Source: a virus. Taken from it: DNA of 64,000 bases. Positions within the stretch are counted from its first letter, which is position 1; the number at the start of each line of letters is the position of its first letter. The position numbers were made by a program, and so were the translations under genes. The stretch is taken from the UHGV virus genome UHGV-0209617; one strand, given 5' to 3'. Shown one piece after another: positions 44,057 through 61,892 of the stretch. The notes beneath the pieces were generated by a model. It made no database searches and had not been told where the DNA came from. It worked only from the letters and a program-made list of their open reading frames with translations.

Positions 44057-44069
44057 TGGGGTGATGTAA

Positions 44070-44348
44070 ATGCTGGTAACACTTGAGGAAATGAAGAACT
44101 ACCTACGGGTAGATTCGGAGGAGGACGATGTGCTTATTACCAGCCTTCTCATGACAGCGGAAAGCCTGTGCAGGGATATACTGAGGATTCAGGATGTGGC
44201 AGTCTTGGCGGATTCAGCTGAAACGCTAAAGACTGCCATTTTATATGCTGTGAGCTATATGTATGAGCATAGGGAAGAGGCAGACCATAAGGAGCTGGTG
44301 CTTACCCTGCGCTCACTGCTGTTTGGTATAAGAGAGGAGCAGTTCTAA
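44070..44348 (+). CDS. Head-tail connector (gp6-like)
   Basis: LEEMKNYLRVDSEEDDVLITSLLMTAESL pattern. Confidence 0.7.
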   Translation: MLVTLEEMKNYLRVDSEEDDVLITSLLMTAESLCRDILRIQDVAVLADSAETLKTAILYAVSYMYEHREEADHKELVLTLRSLLFGIREEQF

Positions 44349-44662
44349 TGAGGGTTTCAAGGCTTGATAAAAGAGTCGGCATCTATAAGCCTGTGTCAGA
44401 AGCTGATGAGTATGGCGGCAGGAACGAGTCCTTTGAGCTGGAATGTTACCGCTGGGCGGAGTTCCTGCGGCCTAACTTCTCCAGCCGTACCCTTGAAGGT
44501 GACGGAAGGGCGGAGATTATTACTCAGGGTATAAGGCTTAGAAACACAGATGCTGAGACCGGATGGCAGGTTCATCACAAGGGTCACATCTATGAGGTGC
44601 TTCATGTTGATGAGTCAGCCAAGGGTGAAATAATCCTTACTACATCGGAGGTGAACCGCTGA
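44348..44662 (+). CDS. Head closure / head-tail adaptor protein
   Basis: Size and position; translational coupling. Confidence 0.6.
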   Translation: MRVSRLDKRVGIYKPVSEADEYGGRNESFELECYRWAEFLRPNFSSRTLEGDGRAEIITQGIRLRNTDAETGWQVHHKGHIYEVLHVDESAKGEIILTTSEVNR

Positions 44663-45108
44663 TGGCCAGAAGTTTCTGGGTAAATACCAATAAGAGCCAG
44701 GCTATAAGCTCTGCTATACGGGATATAGATAAGTTTCAGGATAAGACACAGCGGAATATAAAGGATGCCATAGCAGACAGCACTAGAGCTGTAAAGGATG
44801 CGGCTGTATCAAGGGTCAGGGTGCATAGCGGTAAGCTTAAGAAATCTATCGGTATGAAGCTGAGTGAAAAGGAAACCACAGGCTTTGTATCAGCCAATGC
44901 TCCCCATGCCCATCTGGTAGAGTTTGGGGTATCTGCTGCTCTCGTCATGCCGAAGAATAAGAAGGCCATAAAGATTGGTGACAGGCTAGTGCATCATGCC
45001 ATTGTGCCTGAGCGAAAGGCCAAGCCTTTCATGAGGCCTGCTGCTGACAGTGAAAAAGCAAACCTTGAGAAAAGGATTGTGGAGGCGATAAAGGATGAGC
45101 GTCATTAA
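44662..45108 (+). CDS. HK97 gp10-like tail component
   Basis: RVHSGKLKKSIGMKL...PHAHLVEFG pattern. Confidence 0.6.
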   Translation: MARSFWVNTNKSQAISSAIRDIDKFQDKTQRNIKDAIADSTRAVKDAAVSRVRVHSGKLKKSIGMKLSEKETTGFVSANAPHAHLVEFGVSAALVMPKNKKAIKIGDRLVHHAIVPERKAKPFMRPAADSEKANLEKRIVEAIKDERH

Positions 45109-45511
45109 GACCAGGGTTCCTATACTGGCTTTTCATAAGGCGGTATATAAGCTTTTGTCTGAAGGGCAGACCACATCCGTATATGATGATGTGCTGCCTA
45201 AATCAAAGCCGCCCTATGTGACAATAGGAGCCATAAACATAAAGCCCAACGGCAGCAAGGACAAAGCAATATATGATGCAAGCGTACAGCTTCATATATG
45301 GTCCAGCTACCAGGGCAAGCGTGAAATAAACAGTATCATGAATGACATTTCTACAGTGCTCTCTTATGCGAAACTGAGCCTGGAGGATGGATTCCAGCTT
45401 ATTTCACAGGATGTAGATTTCTATGAGGTCTATTCCGAGGAGGAATACGGCTATCATGGAGTAATAACAGTGATTGCAAGAATACAGGATATGGAGTGTG
45501 AAAGACTATGA
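45095..45511 (+). CDS. Tail completion/terminator-like protein
   Basis: Position between gp10-like and major tail genes. Confidence 0.5.
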   Translation: MSVIKTRVPILAFHKAVYKLLSEGQTTSVYDDVLPKSKPPYVTIGAINIKPNGSKDKAIYDASVQLHIWSSYQGKREINSIMNDISTVLSYAKLSLEDGFQLISQDVDFYEVYSEEEYGYHGVITVIARIQDMECERL

Positions 45512-45990
45512 GTACTACTTTAGATAACATTACCCTTCCGCAGAATCCAGATGTAAGTGCGGCAGAGGTAGGCAAGGATTTTCTTTTGTATATAAATACT
45601 GGGACTGAGGCAGTTCCTGAGTGGCAGATGATTGGCGGTCAGCGAAACAGCGGTCTTACCCGTCAGGCTGAAACTATTGATGTGTCCCACAAGACCAGTG
45701 GTGGCTGGAGTGCTACCAAGGCAGGTCTTCGCTCCTGGAGCATCTCTCTTGATGGGCTGGTGCTTCTGCAGGACATCGGTGTCCGAGCAGTATCCCTTGC
45801 TTTTGAGGATGGCAAGGATGTTCATATCAAGCTGGAATATCCGGATAGCTCCTACCGAACCGGTTGGGCATCTGTGACAGAATTCAGCCTGGATAATCCG
45901 CATGATGGTGCGGCCACTATTTCTGGCACTTTATCTGGTAATGGTGCGCTTTCTGCACTTACAAAAGATAGTATTGGAGGTGGCATCTGA
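45508..45990 (+). CDS. Major tail protein
   Basis: 160 aa; position immediately before the chaperone pair. Confidence 0.65.
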   Translation: MSTTLDNITLPQNPDVSAAEVGKDFLLYINTGTEAVPEWQMIGGQRNSGLTRQAETIDVSHKTSGGWSATKAGLRSWSISLDGLVLLQDIGVRAVSLAFEDGKDVHIKLEYPDSSYRTGWASVTEFSLDNPHDGAATISGTLSGNGALSALTKDSIGGGI

Positions 45991-46328
45991 TGATTAAGTC
46001 AGTGACTGTAACAATAAATGGAAAGCCTCAGAGCATGGCTTTCAACATCAAGCGTCTGGCAAGGTTTGAGCAGTATATCGGTAAGAGTCTGTTTTTTGTA
46101 ATGAGTAGTGGCGGTATCCTAAAATCCATGGATATCAACTTTACCGTAGCTGGCATTGCAACCGCCCTGGATAAGGAAATGACTATGGAGGAGGCAGCTG
46201 ATCTGGTGCAGGCTCACTGCGATGGCGGCGGTCTTTTGGATGACCTTAATGATGGCATCTACAGAGCTATCATTGCATCCGGTCTATTCGTGAAGAATGA
46301 GGATTCAGCCAGCCAGGGAAACGACTGA
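45990..46328 (+). CDS. Tail assembly chaperone (short form)
   Basis: Position before the tape measure gene; overlapping -1 frame open to 46648. Confidence 0.7.
   Translation: MIKSVTVTINGKPQSMAFNIKRLARFEQYIGKSLFFVMSSGGILKSMDINFTVAGIATALDKEMTMEEAADLVQAHCDGGGLLDDLNDGIYRAIIASGLFVKNEDSASQGND
46316..46322 (+). promoter_or_regulatory. Slippery heptamer G_GGA_AAC for a programmed -1 frameshift producing the long chaperone form (45990-46648)
   Basis: X_XXY_YYZ heptamer in the 0 frame, 4 nt before the stop; the -1 frame is open from 46301 to 46648. Confidence 0.6.
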
Positions 46329-46871
46329 ACTCCTTTGCTGAGTGGGTAGAGTATGCCGAAGGTTATGCTTACGGCATACTCGCACTTAAGCCAAGGGAGC
46401 TTGATGAAATAACGCCTGGAGAGTTTTATAAGATGCTGAAGGGCTACGAGGAACGGCAGGAAGTACACAATACTACCACAGCCTATTTCGTGACTAATCT
46501 TATGAACCTCTTTGGTAAATCACTTAAATCCAGTATGACAGTAGAGAAGCTCATGAAGCCGCTTCTCGGAACAAAGAAGAAATCCCCATCAGACAGGAAA
46601 GCTGATGAGGAATATCTACGGACATTATTCAACTTGGCGAAGAAGTAATATCTTCTTTTGGTGGTGCAGGTTGTACGGTGGTTTTACGGATACCTTCGAC
46701 AACCTGTTCTTTAGCATCCATAAGGGCTTCGTTTAACCCTTCGAGAATGGCTTCTGCAGGTGCAGATATTTTTTAACCCATAATTCTCGGCCTCCTTTAT
46801 GGTAAGCACTGCTGATATAGATATTATGCTTGGTTAATTGTAGTAAGTCAACAAATTATGGAGGGATTAGT

Positions 46872-49800
46872 GTGTCGGTAATTTCAAATTTAATGGTTAA
46901 GATCGGTGCAGATTCCTCCGGTCTTAAAAAAGGGCTGGCAGAAGCCGGCAATCAGATAAAAACATCATTCAATACGGCGCCCGTTGAAGCATTCAGCACC
47001 CAGGTGGATGCTTCAAGGAAAACTGTCGAGGGTCTTATCGGAAAGATGAAAGGCTTTGCCGTTCTTGCTGCCGGCGGTTTTGGTATGACTGCCATGATTA
47101 AGGGCATTGCTGAAGCAGGAGATAACTCCTATCGCCTCGCACAGCGTATGCACATAACTGCAGCAGAGGCAGGTGCCTTATCCAGAATCATGAGCATAAC
47201 GGGCGGTGATGTAAACTCCCTCTCCGGTGCCATGATGCGTCTAGATAAATCCTTTTCGTCTGCATCCACGGATGGAGAGCAGACAAGGGCAATCCTTGAT
47301 GCGGTTGGAGTAAGCCTTACCAATCAGAAGGGACAGCTTCTTCCGATAAACGAACAGCTGAAGAACTTGGCGGCTGGATATAAGAAAGCAACGGATGCTG
47401 GCTACGGTCAGGAGTTTATCATGAACACCCTGGGCGTAAAGGGTATGGCTCTTGTATCTACCCTGGAGCAGTACAATGAGGCTGCTGAAGCTGCAGGAAA
47501 GGTAAAGACTGTAGGCCTTGACCCGAAGGCTATGCATGAGCTTAATATGCAGCTGAAGATCATGCAGATGGAAAGCGGTCAGATACAGAATGCCCTTGTG
47601 ATGGGATTTGCACCCGTGGTGCAGGAGTTTCTGCCAGGAATTATGACAGGGCTTCAGACAACGGCCTTATTCCTTCGTGAAAATAAGACTGAGATTGCTG
47701 CCCTTACCAAGGCGGCAGTTGAGTTCTACCTTACCATGAAGGCAATAAGCCTTGTTACTACAGCTGGTGCCAATGTACTGAATTTCTGGAAATCCATAAG
47801 CATGGCTGCCAAGGAAAGTGCGGTCGTTCAGGAAGCAGTATCAGCAGAACTTACAGCAAAGCAGATATCCCAGATAAACAAGGTGGTGGCAAAGTCCAAT
47901 CAGGGCTATGCCAAGATGCAGGTTGATGCAATTAAGGCCGCCCAGAAGCAAGGGATGGCTTCTGAAGAAGCAAGGGCTAAGCTTGAAAAAGACCTGCTTG
48001 CAATTCAACTTGAGGCAGAAAAGACTGCAGCCTTCATAACAAGAAGCTTTACGGCACACTTTATGGAGGTAAATGCAGCGGCTAATGCCATGGCTGCGGG
48101 AACTGCTGAATCCATGACTGCTATGGGGGCGGCTGGGGTTAAGGCAACTACTGCCCAGACCATGGCAACAGCAGAGCTTACGGCAGCTCATGCAGCAGAA
48201 GGAGCTGCGGCATTAAGGGCTGGCGAGAGCAATGTGGCTGCCAGTGCTATGGCAACAAAGGCCACTGTATCACAGACTGTTGCAACAGGTGAGCTTACCG
48301 TTGCTACGGTAGCGTCTGGAAATGCTGCAGCCGTGGCAGGAGCAAAGACAGTTTCCTTTACAGCAGGGGCATTGAAGGGAATCAAGGCACTGCAGGCAGG
48401 AGTTCTTGCTCTGACTGGCGGCTGGCTTGGCCTTGCAGCTGCCATTGCCTATGCCGGATACTGCCTTTATGAGTATCAGAGCGAGAAGATCGCAGAGGAA
48501 AAAGCACATACCTATACTGTTGATGGCCAGCAGTATGAAGAAAAGAATGGCTATTTCTATACCAAGGACAGGGTGAATCCTGATTGGGAGCCAAGCCCTT
48601 ATGATGAGTTTGATGATACTGCCATCATCAAGGGCGGTGAGCTGGTAACAGACAATGACCTCAATGAAAAGCTACAGGCAGCATGGTGGGAACGCCATAA
48701 GGATGACCCGGATTATAAGGCACATCTTGAGCAGGAGGCTGCCGAGACAAAGATGCGTGAGGCAGACAGCAAGCTGGCCGAACTAATGCAGAACCTTAAT
48801 GTAGGAACAGAAAGCGGCTCTAAGGCTCCAGTAAAGGAGCCTGTTACTTATGAGGTGGCTGTGCCAGTAGGTGAGGATGTTGTTGCGGCCGCTATGTATC
48901 ATGTTGGAGAGTCCTGGGGTGAAAATACCTGCTCCATCTTTGCGTCCAAGATGCTGGAAGAGGCAGGTATAACAGGACTATCAGATCCAAACGGGGATAA
49001 TATGGCAGCAAAAGCAGGAGCAGCCTATCACGATGTGAATGATGGTTACCAGCCGAAAGCTGGTGATGTCATTGAGTGGGGCGGTCATGTCGGTATTTAT
49101 GATGGAAATGGCGGATATATTGCATCCAACACAAAGACAGGAGTTCATCATGGCTCCATGGATGAAGCTGAAAGCTGGTTCGGACCGGTGCAGGGTTATA
49201 TCAGCACAGCAGAGTACACTGGGAACAAGACGGTGCTCAAGAACATGGATAGTGAAGCCAAGGCTGTGGAAGATGCCACCGCCAAGCTGAATAAGGCTAA
49301 AGAGGATGCCAAGAAATTATTCTCATCCATGGAATCCGAGATTCAGCGTGAGACAGGCACAGAATACAGCTATGGCATGAACCAGATTGAAGCCAATATC
49401 CGCAAAAAGCAGGTGGAAATTAATCAGCTGAAGGAGTCTGGGGTAGATACCGGTATGCTTGAAAAGGAGCTTCAGGACTATGAGACAGTGCTTAAATCCA
49501 AGATTATAGATAACTGGGAAAAAGCAAACGAGGAAATAAAGGGTTCTACCGCTGTAACCCTGGCAGAGGTAAAGAAAAACTACATCCAGGCAGCAGACGA
49601 AGAGTACAAGGTTACTCTTCAGAAGCTTGCCAGGGAGAGGGAGGAAAAGGAAAAAGAGCTGCTTCGGGATAAGGAGGATGCAGAAAGCCGCCTTGCTATA
49701 GATGAGTGGTATGCAGCTGAATCCTTGAAAGCTATGGAAACAAGGAATAAGAACATACGGGCAAGCTACAGCAAACTGATTTCAGATCTGGAAGAGACTG

Positions 49801-50579
49801 GTGATATAGATGCCCTGCAGGATTTTCTAGGTTCTAATGATGCGCAGGATATGATGTATCTTGAAGGACAGCAGAATCTTGCCAGAGCCTATGTGGATAT
49901 TTGGAAGGAAGCCCATAAAACCACCGAGGATATGGTGGCTGACCTTGCTGTAAGCGTCAACAGCTCAATGGCTGACAGCCTTAAAAGCTTCATTACTGGC
50001 TCAAAGACTGCAATGGATGTGGTGCATGACCTTGGCAGAACCATCATGAACACAATAGCTGAAATCGTAGCCAAGAAAGCTGCCACCCAGATTGTTACCT
50101 CCATGTTTGGAGGATTCTTCAAGGATGGCGGTGAGCTGCCAGGATTTGCTTCGGGAGGCTCTATTGCCGGCGGATATATCAGCGGTGCGGGGACGGGTAA
50201 AAGCGACAGCATAGTTGCGTATCTTGAGAGAAGCGGTCAGTTCGTAAGGCTCTCTGATGGAGAGTTCGTCATGACTGCCGAGGCTACAAGGAAGAACCGC
50301 CCAATGCTTGAAGCCATGAACGCAGGTGCCTATGCTAATGGTGGCTTCATAACAGCTCCGGGAGTAAGACCAGCCTATGCCGGTTCATATTCTGTTGGAA
50401 GCAATCAGCCGGCTGGTGGTGTCATAGTAAACATTACAAATAACTCCGACAGCAGGGTTGAAGCAAGACAGGCAGGATTTGACTCGCAGGCCCAGCGTTA
50501 TATTTTGGATATTGTGATAGACGGAGCACAGAGAAATGTAAACGGTTTTGGAAATAATCTTAAAGCAGTGATGGGGTGA
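46872..50579 (+). CDS. Tape measure protein with embedded CHAP/NlpC-P60-like peptidoglycan hydrolase domain (GTG start)
   Basis: 1236 aa, Ala/Gln-rich coiled-coil-like segments; ENTCSIFASKML...GDVIEWGGHVGIYDG Cys/His hydrolase-like block. Confidence 0.8.
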   Translation: MSVISNLMVKIGADSSGLKKGLAEAGNQIKTSFNTAPVEAFSTQVDASRKTVEGLIGKMKGFAVLAAGGFGMTAMIKGIAEAGDNSYRLAQRMHITAAEAGALSRIMSITGGDVNSLSGAMMRLDKSFSSASTDGEQTRAILDAVGVSLTNQKGQLLPINEQLKNLAAGYKKATDAGYGQEFIMNTLGVKGMALVSTLEQYNEAAEAAGKVKTVGLDPKAMHELNMQLKIMQMESGQIQNALVMGFAPVVQEFLPGIMTGLQTTALFLRENKTEIAALTKAAVEFYLTMKAISLVTTAGANVLNFWKSISMAAKESAVVQEAVSAELTAKQISQINKVVAKSNQGYAKMQVDAIKAAQKQGMASEEARAKLEKDLLAIQLEAEKTAAFITRSFTAHFMEVNAAANAMAAGTAESMTAMGAAGVKATTAQTMATAELTAAHAAEGAAALRAGESNVAASAMATKATVSQTVATGELTVATVASGNAAAVAGAKTVSFTAGALKGIKALQAGVLALTGGWLGLAAAIAYAGYCLYEYQSEKIAEEKAHTYTVDGQQYEEKNGYFYTKDRVNPDWEPSPYDEFDDTAIIKGGELVTDNDLNEKLQAAWWERHKDDPDYKAHLEQEAAETKMREADSKLAELMQNLNVGTESGSKAPVKEPVTYEVAVPVGEDVVAAAMYHVGESWGENTCSIFASKMLEEAGITGLSDPNGDNMAAKAGAAYHDVNDGYQPKAGDVIEWGGHVGIYDGNGGYIASNTKTGVHHGSMDEAESWFGPVQGYISTAEYTGNKTVLKNMDSEAKAVEDATAKLNKAKEDAKKLFSSMESEIQRETGTEYSYGMNQIEANIRKKQVEINQLKESGVDTGMLEKELQDYETVLKSKIIDNWEKANEEIKGSTAVTLAEVKKNYIQAADEEYKVTLQKLAREREEKEKELLRDKEDAESRLAIDEWYAAESLKAMETRNKNIRASYSKLISDLEETGDIDALQDFLGSNDAQDMMYLEGQQNLARAYVDIWKEAHKTTEDMVADLAVSVNSSMADSLKSFITGSKTAMDVVHDLGRTIMNTIAEIVAKKAATQIVTSMFGGFFKDGGELPGFASGGSIAGGYISGAGTGKSDSIVAYLERSGQFVRLSDGEFVMTAEATRKNRPMLEAMNAGAYANGGFITAPGVRPAYAGSYSVGSNQPAGGVIVNITNNSDSRVEARQAGFDSQAQRYILDIVIDGAQRNVNGFGNNLKAVMG

Positions 50580-50583
50580 TTGT

Positions 50584-50943
50584 ATGCTTGTTTTTCCGGA
50601 TATTGAACCTAATATATCCTCTGCCAATGGCTGCGGAGACAGCTATAAGATGTCTATAAAAGACAGTACCGTTTCAACGGTGACAGATGGAAACTATAAA
50701 ATGACCAGACCACGCACGACCAGGATGCTGGCTGCGTGGTCTTTTTCCTGGGTGGCCTTATCTGAGGATGAGTTCAGGAAAATAGAGGACTTCTTCCGAA
50801 AGGTGGGTACCTTCCAGAAGTTCCTCTTTAATAATCCCATGGATGGCAAGGAATACACTGTGAGATTTTCCGAGCCACTTACAGATTGGCAGTATGTTCA
50901 TCCCTATGGCTGGCAGGGAAAGCTCAGTTTTGAGGAGGTGTAA
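50584..50943 (+). CDS. Minor tail protein (lambda gpM-like position)
   Basis: Position and size after the tape measure gene. Confidence 0.5.
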   Translation: MLVFPDIEPNISSANGCGDSYKMSIKDSTVSTVTDGNYKMTRPRTTRMLAAWSFSWVALSEDEFRKIEDFFRKVGTFQKFLFNNPMDGKEYTVRFSEPLTDWQYVHPYGWQGKLSFEEV

Positions 50944-50946
50944 GCC

Positions 50947-51531
50947 ATGCAGGTATGGTCACAGGCGGCAACCCTTGAAAAGAACAGCCTATCTTCGGAT
51001 ACACCGTTTCTTCTTCTGGTTGAGGTCATATCCAAGGAGATGTCAGAGCCGATATATCTGGTCAGAAATACAGAGAATATCGTATGGCGTGGAAAGGAAT
51101 GGACGGCCTTTCCCATAGAGGTGGAATCATCCTCCGAGGATGGAAAGACAATACCGTACATAAACATCAAGGTCAGCAACTGCGGAGGCATGATAGGTGC
51201 CTACCTTCAAAGGTATAACGGCCTTGTGGATTCCGAGATAAGGATTTATGTGGTACTTGCTAGCAATCTGCGATCTGAGTCAGCTGAGTTTGAGCTGGAC
51301 TTTCTTATAACCGAGGCAAAGTACACCGAGGACTGGATAACCTTTGTCCTGGGGGCAAGTGCAGAGCTGGTATCAAGATTTCCCACATTCCGCTATAACA
51401 AGAATTTCTGTCCTTTTATCTGCGGAGATGTGCGGTGCGGCTATGTGGGAAATGAAAGCTGTGTTAATACCCTGGATTCATGTAAGATTCCAGGAAGATT
51501 TGGCGGGGAGCCAGGGATGGTGAGTGCATGA
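50947..51531 (+). CDS. Minor tail protein L-like, with C-terminal cysteine cluster
   Basis: C-terminal FCPFICGDVRCGYVGNESC...C cluster, as in gpL-type tail tip proteins. Confidence 0.6.
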   Translation: MQVWSQAATLEKNSLSSDTPFLLLVEVISKEMSEPIYLVRNTENIVWRGKEWTAFPIEVESSSEDGKTIPYINIKVSNCGGMIGAYLQRYNGLVDSEIRIYVVLASNLRSESAEFELDFLITEAKYTEDWITFVLGASAELVSRFPTFRYNKNFCPFICGDVRCGYVGNESCVNTLDSCKIPGRFGGEPGMVSA

Positions 51532-51911
51532 TGTACAGTGATTTGATTGGTGTGCCATTTGAAGATGGCGGCAGGAACAAAAATGGTATGGACTGCTGGG
51601 GTCTTGTGATGGAGTGCTTTTTCCGTAAGGGAATAGTTCTGCCGGAATATGGTATATCTGCAGAGGAGCTTCTAAGAATTTCAGACAAAATGGCATCTGA
51701 AGAATCCAAATGGGAAAAGCTCACTGAACCGACAGACGGATGCCTTGTGCTTATCCGCACTGCTGAAGGTGCATGGGCAAACCATGTGGGAATCTATATC
51801 GGGGATGGCAGGTTCATCCATGCATATCCCGCAGCAGGGGTATGCATTTCTAAAATCTCTCGCTGGAAGAGTCACATTGTAGGTTTTTATTATCCGAAGG
51901 AGGGCGGCTGA
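51528..51911 (+). CDS. NlpC/P60-family tail-associated peptidase (gpK-like)
   Basis: DCWGLVMECF...H...GDGRFIHA Cys/His pattern. Confidence 0.7.
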   Translation: MMYSDLIGVPFEDGGRNKNGMDCWGLVMECFFRKGIVLPEYGISAEELLRISDKMASEESKWEKLTEPTDGCLVLIRTAEGAWANHVGIYIGDGRFIHAYPAAGVCISKISRWKSHIVGFYYPKEGG

Positions 51912-54900
51912 TGGTAAAGGTCATAATAATTGAAAATCCATTCGAGCCGCATATCCATGATGCATATGAGGTTCTATATACCGGTAAATCCTTGGAAAGC
52001 TACACATCCCTTGAAAGCAGGGATGTGTTCATCAACGGTCATAAGGCTGAAGATATAGCTATTCCAGCAGACGAGGACTGTATCATTTCCATTCCACACA
52101 TAGCAGGAGGCGGTGTAGGAAAGATTCTAGGCTTTGTGGCTATGGTAGCACTTACTGTGGTTACAGGTGGTATTGCTGCTAATGGTCTTACTGGCTTTCT
52201 TGGGCTTACCGTAAAGGGAGCGACCCTTGCCAGCTGTCTTATCTCAGGCGCTGTGATGTATCTGGGCGGCAGGCTCATAAATGCAGTGTTTCCGCAGGGG
52301 GCAGCTACCCAAAGTATTGGAGGATACAGCGAAGGACAGAAGACTCAGACCTATGGCTGGGATCTTCCGACAGTAGCAACAAGAGAAGGCGGCATCATAG
52401 GAGAAACCTATGGCACCTGCATTCCACAGCCCCAGCTCTTGGAGGAGCACGTTGAAACAATCGGTGGAAAGCAGTACCTTAATCTTCTATATTGCGGCGG
52501 TTATGGTGAAGTGGACAACATAACGGATATGCGGATTGATTCTACTCCCATTGACTGCTTTTCAAATGTACAGATAGAAAAGAGGTTTGGCACCAATGAC
52601 CAGAAGCCAATCTCCTTCTTTGACGATACTCCGACCGACCAGGGCGTGAGCCTTCTATTAGACCTCAATAAGCCAATCATCCGTACCACGGATTCCATCA
52701 AGGCATCAGCTCTTGAGGTAACTTTGGAGTGGCCTAATGGACTATACCATCTGAACAATGATGGCAACTATGAAAGTGCCAGCATCGTATGCAGGATAGA
52801 TTACAGGCTTCGCGGGGATGAAGCATGGATTTACCATAATTCCTATACGGTCAGCAACTCATCAGCGGATGCCTTCAGGCGTTCCTTCAAGTGGAAGGTA
52901 TCAAAGGCAGGGCAGTATGATGTAAAGCTGGTGCTTACAACAAAGCCATCTGGCTCAAGGTATATGACCTACACCAGCTGGTCTATCCTGACCTCATATA
53001 ATTCTGGCATTTACAGCAGGCCCAATAAGGTGCTTATTGGCCTTCGCATCCTGGCAACGAATCAGCTGTCGGGCGGAGTTCCTAACCTTACCTGGAAACA
53101 GACACGAAGCAGGGTGTATGTCTATAATCCGCATCTTAAATGCTATGAGATTAAGCCTGCCGACAATCCAATCTGGGCGGCATATGATATCCTTCATGGC
53201 TGCAGGTATCTGAAGAATATCAACACAGGAAGCTTTGAGTATGTGGTGGACGGATGTGCTCATGAGAGACTTGATGCCTATTACGATGAGTGGCTAAGTG
53301 CAGCAGCTTATGCTGATGAAGAAATAGTAAACCATGATGGCGAAAAGGAAAGACGCTTCAAGTTTGATGCGTTCTATGATACCGCCCAGAAACGCTATGA
53401 TGCAGCAGTCAAGGCTGCGGCAGTAGGACACAGTAACATAATAATCCATGGCTGTAACTACGGCATCACAGTGGATAGGCCGGGTATCATAACCCAGGTG
53501 TTCAGCGAAGGGAGAACCACAAAATCCTCTGTGATAGGCTCATTCTTAAGCAGGAGCGAAAGAGCCAGGTCTGTAGAGATTACCTATAATGATGAAAACA
53601 ATGACTACAAGAATACTCAGTTCACCCTGAGAAGTGCCTTGTATGACAGGGATATGGAGCAGGATAATACCGCTCAGCTTACTCTCTTTGGTGTGAGCCG
53701 AAGAAGCCAGGCATACCGTGAGGGTATCATGGCCCTGGCTGCATCAGAAAGACAGCTACAGACAATCGAGCTATCTACGGACATAAATGGCATTACGGCA
53801 GAATACGGGGATATCGTTGGTTACTCACACAGTATCAGCAGAATTGGCATCGCATCCGGCAGGATCGTAAGTGCCACTAAAAACACAGTGAAGCTGGATA
53901 AGAGCGTAACCATGGATGAGGGCAGAACCTATGAAATCTATCTTCAGACACGGAAGGATGAGCTTATACATAGGCTGGTCAAGACCGAGGAGGGCACAAC
54001 TGACCTTCTTACTGTGATGCTGCCGTTTGACACTGCTGTATCTGAATACGACTGCTATTCCTTTGGTGAGGCTGAAAGGGCAGTAAAGCCTTTCCGCATT
54101 GTGGGAGCAGAGCGTGACGGAGATTTTCTGGTGAAGCTGAAGCTCATAGAATATGACGAGGCAGTCTATGCTACCGAAATGGACTATAGTAAATATCCAA
54201 GGATTGACTACACATCATCCGATAGCTTTACCACAGATAACATAACCCTTACGGAAGATACCTATGTGCAAAAAGACGGTACTGTGGTATCTGCTATAGA
54301 TATCGAGTGGGAAAGCCAGTCGGTGTATCAGTCCTCCTTGGATGGCTACAGCGTTGAGATAACGGATATGGAGACTGATACCACAGAGGAGTTCATCGTA
54401 AGCGGTCTGTCTTACAGATACTCTGGGGTAAAGGCAGGAAATACCTATAAGGTAAGGGTGCGGCCTGTGGTTCATGGCAACCGCATCAACGGAAGGTCAG
54501 CATCCATAACCATCACGGGAAAGGTTACGCCACCAGGGGATGTGGCTTATATGTCACTTGTAGAGGTGGATGGCAAAATCCTCGTAACAATCCAGCAGGT
54601 GGCAGAGCCGGATATTGACCACTATGAGCTTAGGCTTGGCAGCAGCTGGGATAATTCCTTTAAGGTATGTGATTTTTCAGGAAGTCCTGTAACTGTCCAG
54701 CCAAGTATGAACGGCACCTGCACATACTTTGTAAAGGCAGTGGATACCTCTGGTAATAAGTCGGAAAATGCCTGCAGGCAGATCATAAACATCAGCAGCA
54801 TCACGGCAAACAATGTAATCCTTGAAAGAAACTTTGATATTCATGACTTTGCTGACTGGGACAATTTTTATGAGCATAGGGGAGCTTTGCTGATGGCAAG

Positions 54901-55603
54901 CAGAGAAAGAATCACTGACTTTGAGTATTTCTGGGAAATCTTCGACCAGCTTACCTATCTTGATGGTTCGGTGTATCTTCCGCTTATTGATTTAGGGGAA
55001 AACATCATAGATACTGACTGCTACTACATAGACAGCAAGGGAATCATCCATCAGCAGAATCTACGGCGCATAAGGGATTTTAAGTATTTTTCCGAGCTAT
55101 TCGAGAAGGATGACCGCCTTGCGGCTCCCGTATCCCTGGACAGTACATTCTTAAGGATTGCCATTGATGGTGATAACAGCAGTGATGTACTGAAGGCAGT
55201 GGAGTATCGGACAAGCATTGATGGATATACCTTCAGCAATTGGATAGCCGCATCCCAGACAGCCTTCAAGGGAAGGTTCGTGCAGATAAGGATTAATCTC
55301 AGCAGCATATCCGGTCATACCCAAGGATACATTAAATCAGTATGTGTCAGCATAGATGTGCCAGATACGGAGGTAATCCTTGAAAATGTACTCCTTAATG
55401 CGGGAGATAACTACATTCGGTATAATCACCGCTTCATGGAAAAGCCATCCTCGGTTGCCGTTTTTACGGCAGATGATAACGGCATGGCTGCAACATGGCA
55501 GATTACGGATTATGACAGGGATGGAGTACACCTTACCATATTCAATGCAAAAGGTGAAAGCTGTAGTGGTAAATTAATAAGAGCCATGGTTCGTGGCTAC
55601 TAA
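51911..55603 (+). CDS. Host-specificity (gpJ-like) tail tip protein
   Basis: 1230 aa immediately after the gpK-like gene. Confidence 0.7.
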   Translation: MVKVIIIENPFEPHIHDAYEVLYTGKSLESYTSLESRDVFINGHKAEDIAIPADEDCIISIPHIAGGGVGKILGFVAMVALTVVTGGIAANGLTGFLGLTVKGATLASCLISGAVMYLGGRLINAVFPQGAATQSIGGYSEGQKTQTYGWDLPTVATREGGIIGETYGTCIPQPQLLEEHVETIGGKQYLNLLYCGGYGEVDNITDMRIDSTPIDCFSNVQIEKRFGTNDQKPISFFDDTPTDQGVSLLLDLNKPIIRTTDSIKASALEVTLEWPNGLYHLNNDGNYESASIVCRIDYRLRGDEAWIYHNSYTVSNSSADAFRRSFKWKVSKAGQYDVKLVLTTKPSGSRYMTYTSWSILTSYNSGIYSRPNKVLIGLRILATNQLSGGVPNLTWKQTRSRVYVYNPHLKCYEIKPADNPIWAAYDILHGCRYLKNINTGSFEYVVDGCAHERLDAYYDEWLSAAAYADEEIVNHDGEKERRFKFDAFYDTAQKRYDAAVKAAAVGHSNIIIHGCNYGITVDRPGIITQVFSEGRTTKSSVIGSFLSRSERARSVEITYNDENNDYKNTQFTLRSALYDRDMEQDNTAQLTLFGVSRRSQAYREGIMALAASERQLQTIELSTDINGITAEYGDIVGYSHSISRIGIASGRIVSATKNTVKLDKSVTMDEGRTYEIYLQTRKDELIHRLVKTEEGTTDLLTVMLPFDTAVSEYDCYSFGEAERAVKPFRIVGAERDGDFLVKLKLIEYDEAVYATEMDYSKYPRIDYTSSDSFTTDNITLTEDTYVQKDGTVVSAIDIEWESQSVYQSSLDGYSVEITDMETDTTEEFIVSGLSYRYSGVKAGNTYKVRVRPVVHGNRINGRSASITITGKVTPPGDVAYMSLVEVDGKILVTIQQVAEPDIDHYELRLGSSWDNSFKVCDFSGSPVTVQPSMNGTCTYFVKAVDTSGNKSENACRQIINISSITANNVILERNFDIHDFADWDNFYEHRGALLMASRERITDFEYFWEIFDQLTYLDGSVYLPLIDLGENIIDTDCYYIDSKGIIHQQNLRRIRDFKYFSELFEKDDRLAAPVSLDSTFLRIAIDGDNSSDVLKAVEYRTSIDGYTFSNWIAASQTAFKGRFVQIRINLSSISGHTQGYIKSVCVSIDVPDTEVILENVLLNAGDNYIRYNHRFMEKPSSVAVFTADDNGMAATWQITDYDRDGVHLTIFNAKGESCSGKLIRAMVRGY

Positions 55604-55617
55604 GGAGGTAGAGATGA

Positions 55618-57972
55618 ATGATAAAGTTTTACGATAGCATGGGAGCCGCCCAGGGCATATCCGTCCTGTCGGACCTGGTGGATGCCTGTGACTTCTGGCA
55701 AAATGGCAAAGAGATTAAGTCGGGCAGTATTGCAAGAAGCTCAACGGACAGCCTTATTTATGCTGAGTGCATTGCAGGAGGCATAACAGGTGATGCAGAA
55801 CCCATCTGGGGGATAACAGATGGAACAGAGATAAACGATGGCAGCGTTAAATGGAAGGTGCATGATTTAAGAAAGGCACTTACTGCAGAAACGACTGACA
55901 GGTTCTCAGTTCCAAGGAAAATAAACGGCATAGAATTTGATGGCAGCAAGGATATAATCCTTCCGGCAGATTCCGTAGACGAGTCCACCTACATTGCAAA
56001 GGGACTGAAGGTTGGCGGTTTCTCTGGGAAGGATTTATTTATTTCCAGCGGTACGGCAAAGGTCAATGGCCGTACTGTAAACTTTGATGGTGGCAGCATT
56101 GAATTAGGGGAAAGGGAAACAGCCCTTGTTCATGTCACGGCAGAGGGGAAGCTGGGCAAGCGAAAGGCGGCATATCCAACGGAGTGGATTGATGACAATA
56201 CCATTGGCTTTTGGATTTTCAACAAGACAATAGCTGGTGATGCCGTGCCTAACATTGCTGTTGGAAAGTCAGCTGTAGCACAGAAAAATGACTTCATTCC
56301 ATACGGTGGCATTACATCGGTTGATGGTTGGGCGGATTATTCCCTGCAGACTGATGTGGCAACAGGTTATTTTGAGCTTCAGAATAACCTTGGCTTTATG
56401 ACGGGTGTTGTGCCATTTGAGTACAACATCCTTATAACACCAGATAAGATTGATGGCTCTACAGACTTCATTTTCAATTATGCAGGAAATGTTACGACCA
56501 TATACATCAACAGCAACGGCCTTCTTTACTGCGGTGGTCAGAACACTGGCTATATCTGCGAGACAGGGAGAACCTTCTTCCTGACCTATCAGTATGATGG
56601 CAGGATTGCCTATGTGTATATTGACGGAAGGCTTGTATTCCAGGTTACAGTAAATATCTCTCTTTCTCTGAATACCAGCCAGAACACAAGAATTGGCTGT
56701 GCCTATGATAAGTCGGATATGTTTCCGGCCACATTCCATTTCGTGGAGATCAGAAAAGCAATCCGTAAGCCGGAGGAGATTGCACATATATCAAATGAAC
56801 TGCTTTTGCCATGCTTCTATGAAAAGGGCAGTTCTACTTATCCTGTCATTCCATCTGAGTATACCAATTATGCCGAGTGGAAATTCGATGATGAGACACC
56901 GGATACTTTGAAGGAAACCAACGGTATCAATAGCGGTGTGGTCGGCAGTACTGTTACTCCCACACAGGAAGAAAGCCAGCTTGGACTTGGCAAGGCTATG
57001 CGTTTTACGGGAGCCAATACCTGCTATATGAGTATCGGCACCATTACAATCCCAGAGGAGTTTACCATCATAGCTGTAGCTAATCCATTCCAGCTCACTG
57101 GACTGAACCGAATCTTTGGCAACAAGATTGGTGCAAGCCAAACCTTCATGTTCTGCTCCTCACAGGATGGAACGCTTGGAGTGTCATTTTACACGGGAAA
57201 TCAGAACAGCAACTCATGGATTAACTCTGGCCTTAAGCCGAATGTGGGAATGGAAAACTTCATTGCTCTTAGGACTACCGCCAAGAATCACTATTTTAGA
57301 GTGAACAGGGAAACGGCAGTAAGGCAAAATGCTTATTGGAGAAAGCCGGTATCTACAGAATTTGCCATAGGTGCCTGCTATGACAATAACTATCCATTCA
57401 AGGGTACATTAGCCTATCTGCTCTTTGTGCCTAGAGCCTTGACTGATGCAGAAATAGAGGAAATGTATGACTGCCTTATGGTAAAGGGCAGGAAGAACAT
57501 CATTGATGATATGGTTCCCGCAGATGCCGCAGTTGTTGCCATGGCAAGGGCTGATGGGGAGTCTGTCATTGAGTATAACGATGCTGACTACAAGTTCGGC
57601 AGGCGAGAAGGCGCGGTTGGCGGCAATAGGAAGGTGTTCCTTGGCTATAAGTATTTCTCTGGCACATCGGTATTATCATGGGATAACCCATTCGGGACAA
57701 GCAGAGTGAAACGATACTTCACATGGGCATCTGATGCCAAGGGTACCAATGAGATTGAAGCCATGAAGATGGTCTATGTGTATAACACTGGCTGGGGAGG
57801 TCTGTGGCCATTCTCGGATTCTGACACAGGAAACGATGATATGAAGATTACCTGTTATGTTAGCACCGTCTATGGAGGTGTTGCTCTATACAACGGAGCA
57901 TGGAAATCCTCTGGCTATATTGGCTGCTATGTGGAGGTAATGGAAGATTATACGGGGGTTGATGGCAGATGA
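55618..57972 (+). CDS. Tail fiber / receptor-binding protein candidate
   Basis: 784 aa at the end of the tail module. Confidence 0.55.
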   Translation: MIKFYDSMGAAQGISVLSDLVDACDFWQNGKEIKSGSIARSSTDSLIYAECIAGGITGDAEPIWGITDGTEINDGSVKWKVHDLRKALTAETTDRFSVPRKINGIEFDGSKDIILPADSVDESTYIAKGLKVGGFSGKDLFISSGTAKVNGRTVNFDGGSIELGERETALVHVTAEGKLGKRKAAYPTEWIDDNTIGFWIFNKTIAGDAVPNIAVGKSAVAQKNDFIPYGGITSVDGWADYSLQTDVATGYFELQNNLGFMTGVVPFEYNILITPDKIDGSTDFIFNYAGNVTTIYINSNGLLYCGGQNTGYICETGRTFFLTYQYDGRIAYVYIDGRLVFQVTVNISLSLNTSQNTRIGCAYDKSDMFPATFHFVEIRKAIRKPEEIAHISNELLLPCFYEKGSSTYPVIPSEYTNYAEWKFDDETPDTLKETNGINSGVVGSTVTPTQEESQLGLGKAMRFTGANTCYMSIGTITIPEEFTIIAVANPFQLTGLNRIFGNKIGASQTFMFCSSQDGTLGVSFYTGNQNSNSWINSGLKPNVGMENFIALRTTAKNHYFRVNRETAVRQNAYWRKPVSTEFAIGACYDNNYPFKGTLAYLLFVPRALTDAEIEEMYDCLMVKGRKNIIDDMVPADAAVVAMARADGESVIEYNDADYKFGRREGAVGGNRKVFLGYKYFSGTSVLSWDNPFGTSRVKRYFTWASDAKGTNEIEAMKMVYVYNTGWGGLWPFSDSDTGNDDMKITCYVSTVYGGVALYNGAWKSSGYIGCYVEVMEDYTGVDGR

Positions 57973-58202
57973 TGTATTACAACAGAAAAACAGGAGACTT
58001 GAGCAGTGTTCCACCATGGGGCGCTGCTTTTTTACTGCCCAAAATCAGGAAGGCAAGATTTCCAGATTGGGAAGAAGTGGATGATGGCTTTGTTCCAAAG
58101 AATAAGAAGGTTGAGCTATCTGAGCCTGAAACCAGCAAGGCTGACATCGAGCTTGCTGAGGCTTTAATAGAAATCTACAGCATATTGGAGGAGAGAAAAT
58201 GA
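57969..58202 (+). CDS. Hypothetical small phage protein
   Basis: ORF translationally coupled to the fiber gene. Confidence 0.5.
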   Translation: MMYYNRKTGDLSSVPPWGAAFLLPKIRKARFPDWEEVDDGFVPKNKKVELSEPETSKADIELAEALIEIYSILEERK

Positions 58203-58357
58203 AGATTTACAAGTACAAGGCAAAGGCCTACGCAGTGCTGGTAAAGGCAGGAAGGTACATACTGTCTGAAGATCAGAGGGAGAACAAGAAGCAGGAGCTT
58301 GTACCAGAGGAGTATGCAGATCTTGTGGCAGAGATTCTTCTTGGAGGCGATAGCTGA
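58199..58357 (+). CDS. Small protein (52 aa), not in the ORF track
   Basis: ATG overlaps the upstream stop (ATGA), GGAGGAGAGAAA SD, and its stop overlaps the next ATG (ATGA). Confidence 0.5.
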   Translation: MKIYKYKAKAYAVLVKAGRYILSEDQRENKKQELVPEEYADLVAEILLGGDS

Positions 58358-58725
58358 TGGATGAGAGGGATGTAGTCATGCTTTACATCCAGGTTGGTGG
58401 TGCGTTACTTGTCAGTGCCATCACAGGCGTAATGGGTGCTCTGGTACGTGAGGTATGGGCGCTTAGAAAGGAACGACAGGAAAAAGCCATAGAGGAAGAA
58501 GCTGAACGGGGAAAACGCAGAAAGGCATTAAAGGCACTCTTGAAGTTTCAGCTTCATCGCTCCTGGCAGTATCACACCAGCAATGGCTTCATGCCAGCCA
58601 ACGAGATGAGCCTTCAGACAGAGCTGTATGAGGCTTATCACGATATGGGAGGTAACGGCACCGGGACAAAGCTCTATAACGAGATGATGGAGCTGCCACA
58701 TATCAAGCACACGGAGGTAAAGTAA
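58357..58725 (+). CDS. Membrane protein, holin-like (one N-terminal TM segment plus charged coiled region)
   Basis: VMLYIQVGGALLVSAITGVMGALV hydrophobic segment; GGAGG SD; in the lysis cassette. Confidence 0.5.
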   Translation: MDERDVVMLYIQVGGALLVSAITGVMGALVREVWALRKERQEKAIEEEAERGKRRKALKALLKFQLHRSWQYHTSNGFMPANEMSLQTELYEAYHDMGGNGTGTKLYNEMMELPHIKHTEVK

Positions 58726-59030
58726 TGAAGAACTTAATAGTACAGTTTTCTGCATGGGCGCAGGCCAACTGGCTTGCGCTTGTTATTTTTATGATTTTTT
58801 CCATGATGGCATTCCTGTGCATGGTCATGGGAAGCTGGCTTTATGGCTACTGGTCAAATGCTCTCTGCGGCACGAAGTTTGAACTTGGTAGCTGCTGGCA
58901 GGGAATCACTGTTGTTATCACGGGCCTTGGCGGTGTTGCAGCACTGGCCAAGGCTGCATGGACCAAGTATTCAACGGACAGCCAGTATAACAGCATGATG
59001 GGGAGTCATCCATACGAAAGGGGTAAGTGA
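58725..59030 (+). CDS. Holin (two predicted TM segments)
   Basis: Two hydrophobic stretches; immediately upstream of the endolysin. Confidence 0.6.
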   Translation: MKNLIVQFSAWAQANWLALVIFMIFSMMAFLCMVMGSWLYGYWSNALCGTKFELGSCWQGITVVITGLGGVAALAKAAWTKYSTDSQYNSMMGSHPYERGK

Positions 59031-59602
59031 TTATGATTAAGGGTATTGATGTATCGGAGAACAACGGCACTGTAGATTGGCAGGCAGTAAAGAATGCCGG
59101 GATTGAGTTTGCTATTGTAAGAAGCTCCTATGGTAAGACGGGAGTGGATGAGAAGTTCCTGGAAAATGTAAATGGTGCTCATGCAGTGGGGCTGAAGGTT
59201 GGTGCTTACCATTATGGCTATGGCCTGACTCCGGCTGATGCAGTGCTTGAAGCAAGGAACTGCCGTGAGGTAATTGATGAGGCAGGAGTGCTTCTGGAGC
59301 TTCCTGTTTTCTATGACATGGAAGATGCTGATGGCTATAAAGAAAGACACGGATTTTGGTTTGACCCAGAGAATGCCACAGGTATCTGCAGGGCATTCCT
59401 GGATAACATTGGCCTGAACTGTGGTGTATACGCATCATACAGCTGGCTTTGTGATTTGATTGACTGGCGCAGTCTCGGCTGCTCAGTCTGGAACGCAGAA
59501 TGGGGAGGTAGCGATGATATTGAAGGATATATGTGGCAGTTTACGGAAAAGCTTTATATCTCTGGTAAGCAGTTTGATGGAAACTATCTCTACAACTGGT
59601 AA
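59027..59602 (+). CDS. GH25-family lysozyme endolysin (muramidase)
   Basis: IKGIDVSENNGTVDWQAVKNAGIEFAIVR ... GAYHY pattern typical of GH25. Confidence 0.8.
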   Translation: MIMIKGIDVSENNGTVDWQAVKNAGIEFAIVRSSYGKTGVDEKFLENVNGAHAVGLKVGAYHYGYGLTPADAVLEARNCREVIDEAGVLLELPVFYDMEDADGYKERHGFWFDPENATGICRAFLDNIGLNCGVYASYSWLCDLIDWRSLGCSVWNAEWGGSDDIEGYMWQFTEKLYISGKQFDGNYLYNW

Positions 59603-59616
59603 GGCGGTGATGGGGC

Positions 59617-60036
59617 ATGAGAAAATCATTCTGGTTTGTGCTGCTGTTATTGCTCTTGTGTGTGCCGCAGCTTTCCTTTGCTGCAGAGAGGACATACCAA
59701 GTGACGGAGACAGAGCTGACGAGGTTAGAACAGAACTTGACGGAGCTATCCGAAATGAACAGCAAGCAATCAATGAACTTAGAACAGCAGAAGATACAGC
59801 TTCAGAACTCGGATTTGCAGTTGAAGCAGGCCGAAGAGAAGTACAGTCTGCTATCCAGTCAAATGAAGAACTTGGAGAAGGAAATGCTAGAGCAGCAGGA
59901 CTCATTAGAGAATGCCAGGAAATCCTTCGAACAGTTCGCCAAAGAGGAACAATTGAAGAGAGATAAGCTGAAGCGTGAAAAGAATATAGGATACTGGCTT
60001 GCAGGGATACTAGCTGTAGTATGTATTGCCAGATAA
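59617..60036 (+). CDS. Signal peptide + coiled-coil + C-terminal membrane anchor protein (unknown function)
   Basis: MRKSFWFVLLLLLLCVPQLSFAAE signal-like N-terminus; heptad-like Q/E/K/L-rich middle; hydrophobic C-terminus IGYWLAGILAVVCIAR. Confidence 0.6.
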   Translation: MRKSFWFVLLLLLLCVPQLSFAAERTYQVTETELTRLEQNLTELSEMNSKQSMNLEQQKIQLQNSDLQLKQAEEKYSLLSSQMKNLEKEMLEQQDSLENARKSFEQFAKEEQLKRDKLKREKNIGYWLAGILAVVCIAR

Positions 60037-60040
60037 GTGA

Positions 60041-60084
60041 AAAGCCCGATGTGGAGAAAAAATTTCTCTGCATCGGGCTTTTTC
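60041..60084 (+). terminator. Rho-independent terminator after the lysis cassette
   Basis: AGCCCGATG ... CATCGGGCT stem followed by TTTTT. Confidence 0.7.
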
Positions 60085-60174
60085 AGTTATTGGTCATATA
60101 CATAACGAGTAGCAAACGGCGCTAATAAACGTGCGTATATAAATTATAAAATAAGCACGAATGTTAAAATTATC

Positions 60175-60203
60175 TTTACAACTGTGCTTATTTAATTTAT
60201 AAT
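60175..60203 (+). promoter_or_regulatory. Consensus-like promoter for abiE (TTTACA, 17 bp, TATAAT) flanked by ATAAGCAC repeats
   Basis: Hexamers read directly; ATAAGCACG at 60151 and 60204 and its inverse GTGCTTAT at 60184 overlap the promoter. Confidence 0.6.
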
Positions 60204-60228
60204 ATAAGCACGGTTGGAGGTGATTGCC

Positions 60229-60810
60229 ATGAATGACATTGAAAAGCTTGTTGATGAGTCAGGAATGATTACAACTAGAGATATAGTGAAAAATAATCAG
60301 TCAAAAGTAGAATTTTACAATTACCTGAGAAAAAATGATTTTGAACAAGTATCGCGTGGTATATATGCTTCTAAGGATGCGTGGGTAGACCCATTATTGA
60401 TTGCGCATATGAGATGTCCTAAAGCGGTGATCTCTCATGATGTGGCACTTCATTATTATGGCTTGGTTGATAGAGAGCCTTCAGCTCCAACGCTTACTAT
60501 TTATTCTGGATACAACACAAGCAGGTTAAAAGAAGCAGGGTACAAGGTGTTTTTCGTGAAGAAGGAATACCTTGATGCTGGCAAAGAAGAGGTTGTAAAT
60601 TTTGATGGCAACATCATTCCTATGTATAACCTTGAAAGAACGATGTGTGACCTTGTCAGAAACAGAAGCAGCTTTGAGATTCAAGATTTCAATGCAGCTA
60701 TAAAAGCGTATGCCAGAAAAAAGGAAAAGAATCTTACAAGGCTATTTGAATATGCGAAAATGCTTAGGGTGGAAAAATTGATGCGGTCATATATGGAGGT
60801 GCTTTTGTAA
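60229..60810 (+). CDS. abiEi: AbiEi-family antitoxin / transcriptional regulator
   Basis: N-terminal DNA-binding-like region ending ...VSRGIYA; paired with a DUF1814-type nucleotidyltransferase; GGAGGTGA SD. Confidence 0.75.
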   Translation: MNDIEKLVDESGMITTRDIVKNNQSKVEFYNYLRKNDFEQVSRGIYASKDAWVDPLLIAHMRCPKAVISHDVALHYYGLVDREPSAPTLTIYSGYNTSRLKEAGYKVFFVKKEYLDAGKEEVVNFDGNIIPMYNLERTMCDLVRNRSSFEIQDFNAAIKAYARKKEKNLTRLFEYAKMLRVEKLMRSYMEVLL

Positions 60811-61664
60811 TGATCTTATCAGCTGCACAGGCAAGAGGCAGGATTAAGAATATTGTGGCAAAAAATGGTGCGGACCCAAGACTGCTTATGAGAATTTATA
60901 TGATGGAGAGATTTTTGGAACGAGTATCCCTTTCTGCATACAAGGATAATTTCATCATTAAGGGCGGAATGCTTATAACATCATTGGTTGGTATTTCCAT
61001 GCGGTCAACTATGGATATTGACACAACTGTAAAAGGCCAGGATGTAAGCATGGAAAATGCACAGCGTATTGTTAAAGAAATTGCTGACATTCAGATTGAT
61101 GATGGGGTTTCTTTTGTGATTAAAGATGTAGAAAACATAATGGATGAGATGGAATATCCAGGAATCAAATTTCACTTGGAAGTGTTATTAGACAAAATGG
61201 TTACGCCAATAAAGATTGATGTTTCTACGGGCGATGCAATTACACCCAGAGCGATTGAATATAATTACAAGCTTATGCTTGAAGATAGAGAAATCGGGCT
61301 GTGGAGCTATAATCTGGAAACAATCCTTGGGGAAAAATTACAGACGATACTTGTACGTGAACGTGCAAACACCAGAATGAGAGATTTCTATGATATATGT
61401 GTATTGGTAGAAATGTATGACAGTAAGATAAATACTGTCAATTTCAAAGCAGCATATGAGGCGACCTGTAGAAAAAGAGGGTCATTACACTTATTTGGTA
61501 ATGAAGGAAAAATACTGGATATAATAGCTGGTGAAAGTAAAATGATTGATAGATGGACAAATTATCAGAAGAAGTTTTCTTATGCATCTGATATCAGTTT
61601 TGAGAAAGCTATTCAGTGTGCAAAGGGGTTAATTTCATTCTTGAAAAATAGTACCGGAAAATAA
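60810..61664 (+). CDS. abiEii: AbiEii-family nucleotidyltransferase toxin (DUF1814-type)
   Basis: 284 aa directly coupled to the AbiEi gene; typical gene pair. Confidence 0.75.
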   Translation: MILSAAQARGRIKNIVAKNGADPRLLMRIYMMERFLERVSLSAYKDNFIIKGGMLITSLVGISMRSTMDIDTTVKGQDVSMENAQRIVKEIADIQIDDGVSFVIKDVENIMDEMEYPGIKFHLEVLLDKMVTPIKIDVSTGDAITPRAIEYNYKLMLEDREIGLWSYNLETILGEKLQTILVRERANTRMRDFYDICVLVEMYDSKINTVNFKAAYEATCRKRGSLHLFGNEGKILDIIAGESKMIDRWTNYQKKFSYASDISFEKAIQCAKGLISFLKNSTGK

Positions 61665-61697
61665 TATGTCAGCTTAATAGTATATGGAAATGTACGT

Positions 61698-61736
61698 CCC
61701 TATGTGGAACTTGAGGTTCTGCATAGGGTATTTTTT
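61698..61736 (+). terminator. Rho-independent terminator after abiEii
   Basis: CCCTATG ... CATAGGG stem followed by TTTTTT. Confidence 0.65.
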
Positions 61737-61892
61737 GTTATCGCTGGTTCTAAAAATGGTTCTTGTTGTCCTTGTACTGTTGAGGTGAAGAATCATGACG
61801 GATTTCCGTTCAAAGAGTGCATTTCTGTCATGGGACTGTTAAAGGGGTTCGATTTGCCCTGATTTGCCGCATATAAGTAGGAGGGATGCATC

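Follow-up and report, generated by a model that had tools for sequence, protein, structure and literature searches.

The 64,000-nt virus genome UHGV-0209617 from UHGV, referred to in its whole length as the window, carries four open reading frames (ORFs) at positions 50584-55603, directly 3′ of the tape measure ORF. All genes and protein segments located by coordinates below lie on the plus strand. We found that these ORFs specify an ordinary lambda-type tail tip, and the region very probably codes for the tail-tip complex of a temperate siphovirus that has an HK97-type head and is present as an integrated prophage in Anaerovibrio. A preliminary description of this DNA had placed four genes directly 3′ of the tape measure gene, and we recovered them at exactly those positions. 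It had also proposed that they follow the lambda order M-L-K-J. Profile searches, structure models and synteny support this order and these families; the lambda order, however, is M-L-K-I-J, and the equivalent of I was found fused to the N-terminus of the J-like protein. Searches with hidden Markov model profiles, suggested in the same description, contributed to this assignment and returned no Dit/Tal family at E <= 0.01.

The four ORFs are tightly packed, with gaps of 3-4 bases or overlapping stop and start codons, and are preceded by purine-rich ribosome-binding sites. Their order, M-L-K-I::J, is kept in seven related genome loci.

A gpL-type hub protein with four invariant cysteines

The L-like gene (50947-51531) encodes a gpL-type hub protein of 194 aa. 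It scored 40.8 bits against PF05100 Phage_tail_L, above the curated threshold of 25 bits, and also matched DUF1833 and phrog_18, the latter at E 7.6e-25. When structure models were compared, its hub-domain fold matched gpL-class hubs.

A cluster of four cysteines had been described at the C-terminal end of this protein. The stretch (51409-51483) is real and four of its cysteines are conserved, but it holds five: C155, C159, C164, C172 and C179. Cysteine makes up about 1% of residues in 13 structural proteins, a background against which the binomial probability of at least five in 25 residues is about 4e-6. Conservation of four of them is stronger evidence than this enrichment. In 26 relatives, sharing 51-98% identity, C155, C164, C172 and C179 are invariant while C159 varies. 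The four align to C173, C182, C205 and C212 of lambda gpL, which in the lambda tail structure surround an iron-sulfur density and are the ligands of a [4Fe-4S] cluster (PMC10721106). The proposed resemblance to iron-sulfur-binding gpL proteins is thus supported, and we infer that the L-like protein binds a [4Fe-4S] cluster through C155, C164, C172 and C179.

The predicted site, C-x8-C-x7-C-x6-C, differs in spacing from that of lambda gpL, C-x8-C-x22-C-x6-C. Because the loop between the second and third cysteines is 15 residues shorter than in lambda (x7 versus x22), because the model of this region is of low confidence and because a Cys4 zinc site and a Cys4 [4Fe-4S] site look the same from sequence alone, we considered whether the four conserved cysteines bind zinc or form disulfides instead. 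This is unlikely, since the four positions align one-to-one with the lambda ligands and the hub proteins of RcGTA and T1, which are homologous, show cluster density as well. For the function of the gpL cluster, left open by the work on the lambda structure (PMC10721106), a shorter, distant variant such as the iron-sulfur site predicted here may serve for comparison.

The M-like protein and the Dit/Tal question

The first ORF of the module (50584-50943, 119 aa) encodes a gpM-type distal tail protein, or minimal Dit. The best structural match of its model was lambda gpM, and both the gpM fold and the position directly 3′ of the tape measure gene were found. A profile search of 1.84 billion representatives gave 492 relatives of about 110-120 aa. 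When 85 distant relatives were sampled, 16 matched PF05939 and 14 matched DUF2460, with no other Pfam family at E <= 0.001. The profile of the relatives matched lambda gpM in hhalign (84.6%, E 7e-6). Searches of the PDB were uninformative: a single-sequence phmmer search returned chance matches to collagen lysyl hydroxylase and nothing else, and a profile of 7 sequences had no match. The link to gpM consequently needed the structure model and the deeper profile.

The preliminary description had set the lambda-type assignment against an assignment of these genes to Dit/Tal families by profile searches. The latter did not occur, no Dit/Tal sequence family being found in the tail-tip proteins at E <= 0.01. 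At the level of the fold gpM is itself a minimal Dit, and therefore the contrast between lambda-type and Dit/Tal tips concerns sequence families rather than architecture. That the genes are of the Dit/Tal type usual for Gram-positive siphophages and have been misread is extremely improbable; this reading is already refuted at the level of sequence families, and the best structural and profile matches of the tail-tip proteins are lambda-class.

The K-like peptidase

The third ORF (51528-51911, 127 aa) encodes a gpK-like NlpC/P60 peptidase (PF00877, 64.9 bits). C23, H86 and H98 are in place and align with the catalytic Cys-His-His triad of MepS/Spr. The protein matched residues 58-154 of lambda K (BLASTP E 3e-6); lambda K itself has a Prok-JAB match at residues 10-56. 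A comparable small peptidase, g14 of RcGTA, degrades peptidoglycan and is required for tail formation (PMC7296036).

The J-like protein and a fused gpI-like part

The last ORF of the module (51911-55603) encodes a J-like protein of 1230 aa with a gpJ-type hub core at 52505-54124. It contains the gpJ domains FNIII-A_GpJ (74.2 bits, cut-off 27) and Phage-tail_3 (44.5 bits, cut-off 23) and matched phrog_31 at E 1e-128. Residues 199-738 aligned with residues 37-581 of lambda J (8iyk_J; phmmer E 3e-13), and the alignment to the T1 fibre 9l9p_S extended to residue 879. The distal part (54125-55603) consists of an FN3-like region followed by about 270 C-terminal residues for which no significant family or sequence match was found. 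No similarity to the lambda-type C-terminal receptor-binding domain, beyond lambda J residue 581, was detected in the J-like protein; its distal end is presumed to bind the receptor.

About 190 residues precede the part aligned to lambda J. A profile built from the seven related loci was compared with all PDB sequences, and the top match was lambda gpI (8iyk_I, E 1.1e-5, residues 32-184 versus 62-211), followed by the tail assembly protein of the F2-pyocin. The comparison with lambda gpI in hhalign gave 89.8%. This N-terminal part (51911-52480) comprises a short N-terminal domain, a glycine-rich hydrophobic segment at about residues 63-125 and a plug region. The hydrophobic segment, seen as a hydropathy peak, resembles gpI residues 137-152. 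In lambda, gpI is a trimeric plug beneath the C-terminus of the tape measure protein (PMC10721106). I is not a separate gene here; the ORF is a single continuous one of 1230 codons, as it is in all seven related loci and in the Pseudomonas phage phiK7B1. Judged from the profile and hhalign matches ahead of the J core, the fifth tip gene of lambda, I, is thus present, fused to the N-terminus of the J-like protein.

Adjoining the J-like gene is a gene (55618-57972) for a 784-aa protein with a ConA-like lectin domain (Laminin_G_3, 54.8 bits). It stands beside the J-like gene in every identical copy of the prophage and in two related loci, L002 and L003, where its DNA identity is about 72%. Its probable role is that of a side fibre or second receptor-binding protein.

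The tape measure protein

The tape measure protein (46830-50579, 1249 aa) has a lambda-type C-terminus, PF09718 Tape_meas_lam_C matching residues 1025-1089 with 25.1 bits (cut-off 23), and several tape-measure PHROGs match the ORF. A C-terminus of this type would be expected if the tape measure protein co-evolves with the tip. An internal stretch, residues 699-779, scored 22.7 bits against NLPC_P60, just below the cut-off of 23, so that the tail may carry two peptidases, this stretch and the K-like protein.

Two small ORFs (45990-46328 and 46433-46648) lie between the tube and tape measure genes, about 100 bases apart and without overlap. This is the usual site of tail assembly chaperones produced with a programmed frameshift.

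Results that weigh against the assignment

Several results speak against a lambda-type tip of this composition. The L-like protein scored 36.7 bits under the stricter NCBIfam equivalog TIGR01600, which requires 70.75; because this cut-off was missed, the protein is, on its sequence, a distant member of the gpL family. Its cysteine-rich C-terminus was modelled with a predicted local distance difference test score (pLDDT) of 29-60. The M-like protein reached 19.7 bits against PF05939 Phage_min_tail, below the Pfam threshold of 39, and the J-like protein 128.6 bits against NF040662, just below the NCBIfam cut-off of 140. The ubiquitin-like N-terminal domain of gpI (PF06805) gave no match in the N-terminus of the J-like protein even at E <= 10, and the gpI-like alignments start only at gpI residue 62-64. 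In the K-like protein no JAB/MPN part was matched, so its preliminary identification as lambda K holds for the NlpC/P60 half and fails for the JAB part, of which lambda K carries a remnant; the K-like start overlaps the L-like stop, which leaves no room upstream for a JAB part.

Comparison with known tail tips

The module was compared with solved and deposited tail tips. Lambda (8iyk) shares with the window phage the gene order 3′ of the tape measure gene, the gpM fold, a gpL hub with four aligned cysteines, the NlpC/P60 peptidase, the hydrophobic and plug region of gpI, the gpJ core with FNIII-A and the type of tape measure C-terminus, at just 18-26% identity between the proteins. Unlike lambda, the window phage has I fused to J and K without JAB, the receptor-binding C-terminal end of lambda J is unrelated to the J-like end, and the lysis genes come after the tail genes, as in Firmicute phages.

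At the DNA level, positions 44000-58000 had no match among deposited phages, a collection that holds few Negativicute phages. At the protein level, tblastn with the L-like protein returned 19 records, all below 30% identity and all from Pseudomonas, Klebsiella, Vibrio, Salmonella or Escherichia phages. The M-like protein matched only four records, all Pseudomonas Nickievirus. The J-like protein matched 1474, of which the ten commonest name groups are all Proteobacteria phages.

Nickievirus phages (phiK7B1, ZY21, nickie and Nican01) gave the best deposited-phage matches for M, L and the N-terminus of J. In phiK7B1 the four-gene layout 3′ of the tape measure gene is identical, with proteins of nearly the same sizes (121, 212, 126 and 1304 aa), and it shares with the window phage K without JAB, the I::J fusion and the four cysteines of the L-like protein. 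Identity is 27-30% for each protein compared, and the cysteine spacing of its L-like protein differs (x10, x8, x9). Nickievirus genomes are 112 kb and of lytic type, have a Proteobacterium host and are otherwise unrelated to the window. The layout with K lacking JAB and I fused to J is therefore already present in cultured phages, where it is mostly annotated as hypothetical.

The RcGTA baseplate (g12, g13, g14 and g15; PDB 6tba) does not belong to a virus; its hub protein has an extra sugar-binding domain, and the N-terminus of its large protein is a different ‘iris’ region that is not gpI-like. In the T1 tail tip (9l9p), 9l9p_J is the best PDB sequence match of the L-like protein, though a weak one (E 0.04), and for the J-like protein T1 9l9p_S and F2-pyocin 25vf_A come out best. 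The F2-pyocin (PDB 25vf) further contributes the tail assembly protein that matches the gpI-like part. In both T1 and the F2-pyocin the I-like protein is a separate chain, unlike the fusion in the window.

The prophage and its host

One related locus, L015, is 100% identical to window positions 50810-64000 (13,191 bases) and continues past the integrase gene into host genes; its host proteins share one contig of 154,734 bp with the proteins of the window. Beside the prophage, the host pyruvate carboxylase subunit B has the same sequence as a protein listed by NCBI under Anaerovibrio lipolyticus, and an aminotransferase is 82-88% identical to proteins of Selenomonadaceae and of Anaerovibrio metagenome-assembled genomes (MAGs). 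Anaerovibrio belongs to the Selenomonadaceae, Negativicutes. Where assemblies with relatives of the L-like protein carry a genus or species name, these too are all Negativicutes: Selenomonas infelix ATCC 43532, Pectinatus cerevisiiphilus DSM 20467 and Mitsuokella multacida. Judged by its flanking genes, the host is shown to be Anaerovibrio (Selenomonadaceae, Negativicutes).

A single-membrane Lachnospiraceae host would make the lambda-type tip a real oddity. An 81%-identical L-like protein does lie on a contig labelled as a Lachnospiraceae MAG (L002; P0003), and a left-flank restriction enzyme falls in a cluster with a Lachnospiraceae-labelled protein. These labels, however, come from the binning of short contigs (20.5 kb and 4.3 kb), whereas the window's own contig runs into Anaerovibrio host genes and all relatives in assemblies named to genus or species are from Negativicutes; we regard such a host as very unlikely. 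The L-like proteins of L002 and L003 are 80-81% identical to that of the window, one locus being labelled Lachnospiraceae and the other Veillonellaceae, and at least one of these two MAG labels is probably a binning error.

Negativicutes such as Anaerovibrio are Firmicutes with an outer membrane. It had been stated that this arrangement is less common in Firmicutes siphophages than the Dit/Tal arrangement; this is true but misleading, for with an Anaerovibrio host that has two membranes a lambda-type tip is less anomalous than the word Firmicute would imply.

Whether the module belongs to an infectious phage was also considered. In near-identical copies of the prophage (L009, L011 and L013 were noted) the tape measure ORF is either split into 381 + 838 aa, as in L009, or has 1194, 1226 or 1235 aa, and RcGTA and the F-type pyocin are among the nearest structural relatives of the tip. 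These observations would fit a defective prophage, a tailocin or a gene transfer agent. We regard such an origin as unlikely. The prophage is complete, with portal, protease, capsid, connector, tube, lysis, excisionase and integrase genes all present, and the exact L-like protein recurs on 24 contigs drawn from many samples, the pattern to be expected of a phage in circulation. A comparison of positions 17500-21200 with the sequence past the integrase gene, made for attachment sites, gave just 11-12-base matches, which were unconvincing.

A possible mosaic of Firmicute and Proteobacterial modules

With its counterparts in phages of Ruminococcus, Terrisporobacter, Clostridium and Lachnospiraceae the capsid protein shares 63-67% identity, and for the tail tube protein nearly all matches were to phages of Firmicutes (Enterococcus, Paenibacillus, Clostridium, Streptococcus and Listeria). 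The genome order, with tail genes first, lysis genes next and lysogeny genes last, is the Firmicute type described for Negativicute prophages (10.1101/606087). In the Terrisporobacter phage TPDSL_ph1, a capsid relative from a single-membrane host, the genes 3′ of the tape measure gene are unrelated to those of the window. It is possible, with the chances close to balanced but falling somewhat short of even, that the phage is a mosaic in which the capsid, tube and genome order are as in single-membrane Firmicute phages and the envelope-contacting module is as in deposited Proteobacteria phages. Searches by tblastn with the N- and C-terminal parts of the tape measure protein gave few and mixed matches (a Thermoanaerobacterium phage; mycobacteriophages and Brevundimonas phages) and did not place a mosaic junction.

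Such a mosaic would bear on how phages of outer-membrane Firmicutes have adapted to the host envelope. If the pattern holds across Negativicute prophages, the type of tail tip tracks envelope architecture and not host ancestry, and in that case these prophages would offer a natural test of the way in which Firmicute phages deal with an outer membrane. That question had come up in a comparative analysis of prophages from Negativicutes, though not with regard to the tail tip, and the text of that study is without the words ‘receptor’, ‘adsorption’ and ‘envelope’ (10.1101/606087). The present results extend the iron-sulfur gpL family, together with the layout in which K lacks JAB and I is fused to J, to Negativicute prophages; the deposited phage collection had held no Negativicute phage match to the L-like or M-like protein. 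The wider point, that head, tube and genome order in the Firmicute style are combined with a tip of the two-membrane type, is modest.

A model of the tail tip

From the solved tips of lambda, T1 and RcGTA, to which the proteins identified above are homologous, we propose an arrangement for these proteins and infer the stoichiometry, the iron-sulfur binding, the role of the peptidase and the steps of infection. The 119-aa M-like protein would form a ring connecting the tube of the tail with the tip. The upper hub would consist of three 194-aa L-like chains, each with a [4Fe-4S] cluster on C155, C164, C172 and C179, and three copies of the 1230-aa J-like protein would make up the remaining hub and the central fibre, the gpI-like N-terminal part plugging the lumen beneath the tape measure C-terminus. 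The 127-aa NlpC/P60 peptidase may act in assembly, in cutting the wall or in both, as RcGTA g14 does. When the phage infects, the outer surface would be bound by the J-like distal end and probably by the 784-aa lectin-like protein, after which the tip would open. The hydrophobic gpI-like segment and the tape measure protein would then leave the tail and help the DNA cross the outer membrane and the peptidoglycan.

Neighbouring genes

The endolysin of the window (59027-59602, 191 aa) has a single GH25 domain without a wall-binding domain; that of TPDSL_ph1 has two domains, an amidase and a CW_7 wall-binding repeat. Just 3′ of the endolysin gene, an ORF (59617-60036) encodes a 139-aa protein with a signal-like hydrophobic N-terminus, a long, charged, coiled-coil-like middle and a hydrophobic C-terminus. 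It matched an Rz-like spanin PHROG weakly (E 0.005). A spanin-like layout would fit a two-membrane host but was not used as evidence for the host. Between the lysis and the excisionase/integrase genes lies a likely AbiEi/AbiEii toxin-antitoxin (abortive infection) pair (60214-61664). The AbiEii assignment is a precomputed Pfam match, the AbiEi match is weak (18.6 bits, cut-off 25), and some copies of the prophage have a split AbiEii gene.

The left flank of the window is low in GC, 31-38% compared with about 46% in the prophage. At 12643-18321 it contains two putative DNA methyltransferase genes, and beside them a GTPase subunit and an LlaJI-family restriction endonuclease, as named in the source records. 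Also on the left side are three paralogous small proteins (3763-4326, 7333-7959 and 8061-8633) with similar bodies and nearly the same N-terminal hydrophobic leader ending in a cysteine, which may be lipoproteins. Far from the main prophage, an ORF of 163 aa (1721-2212) may correspond to the N-terminal part of a phage portal protein, which it resembles by eye, and may be a remnant of another element.

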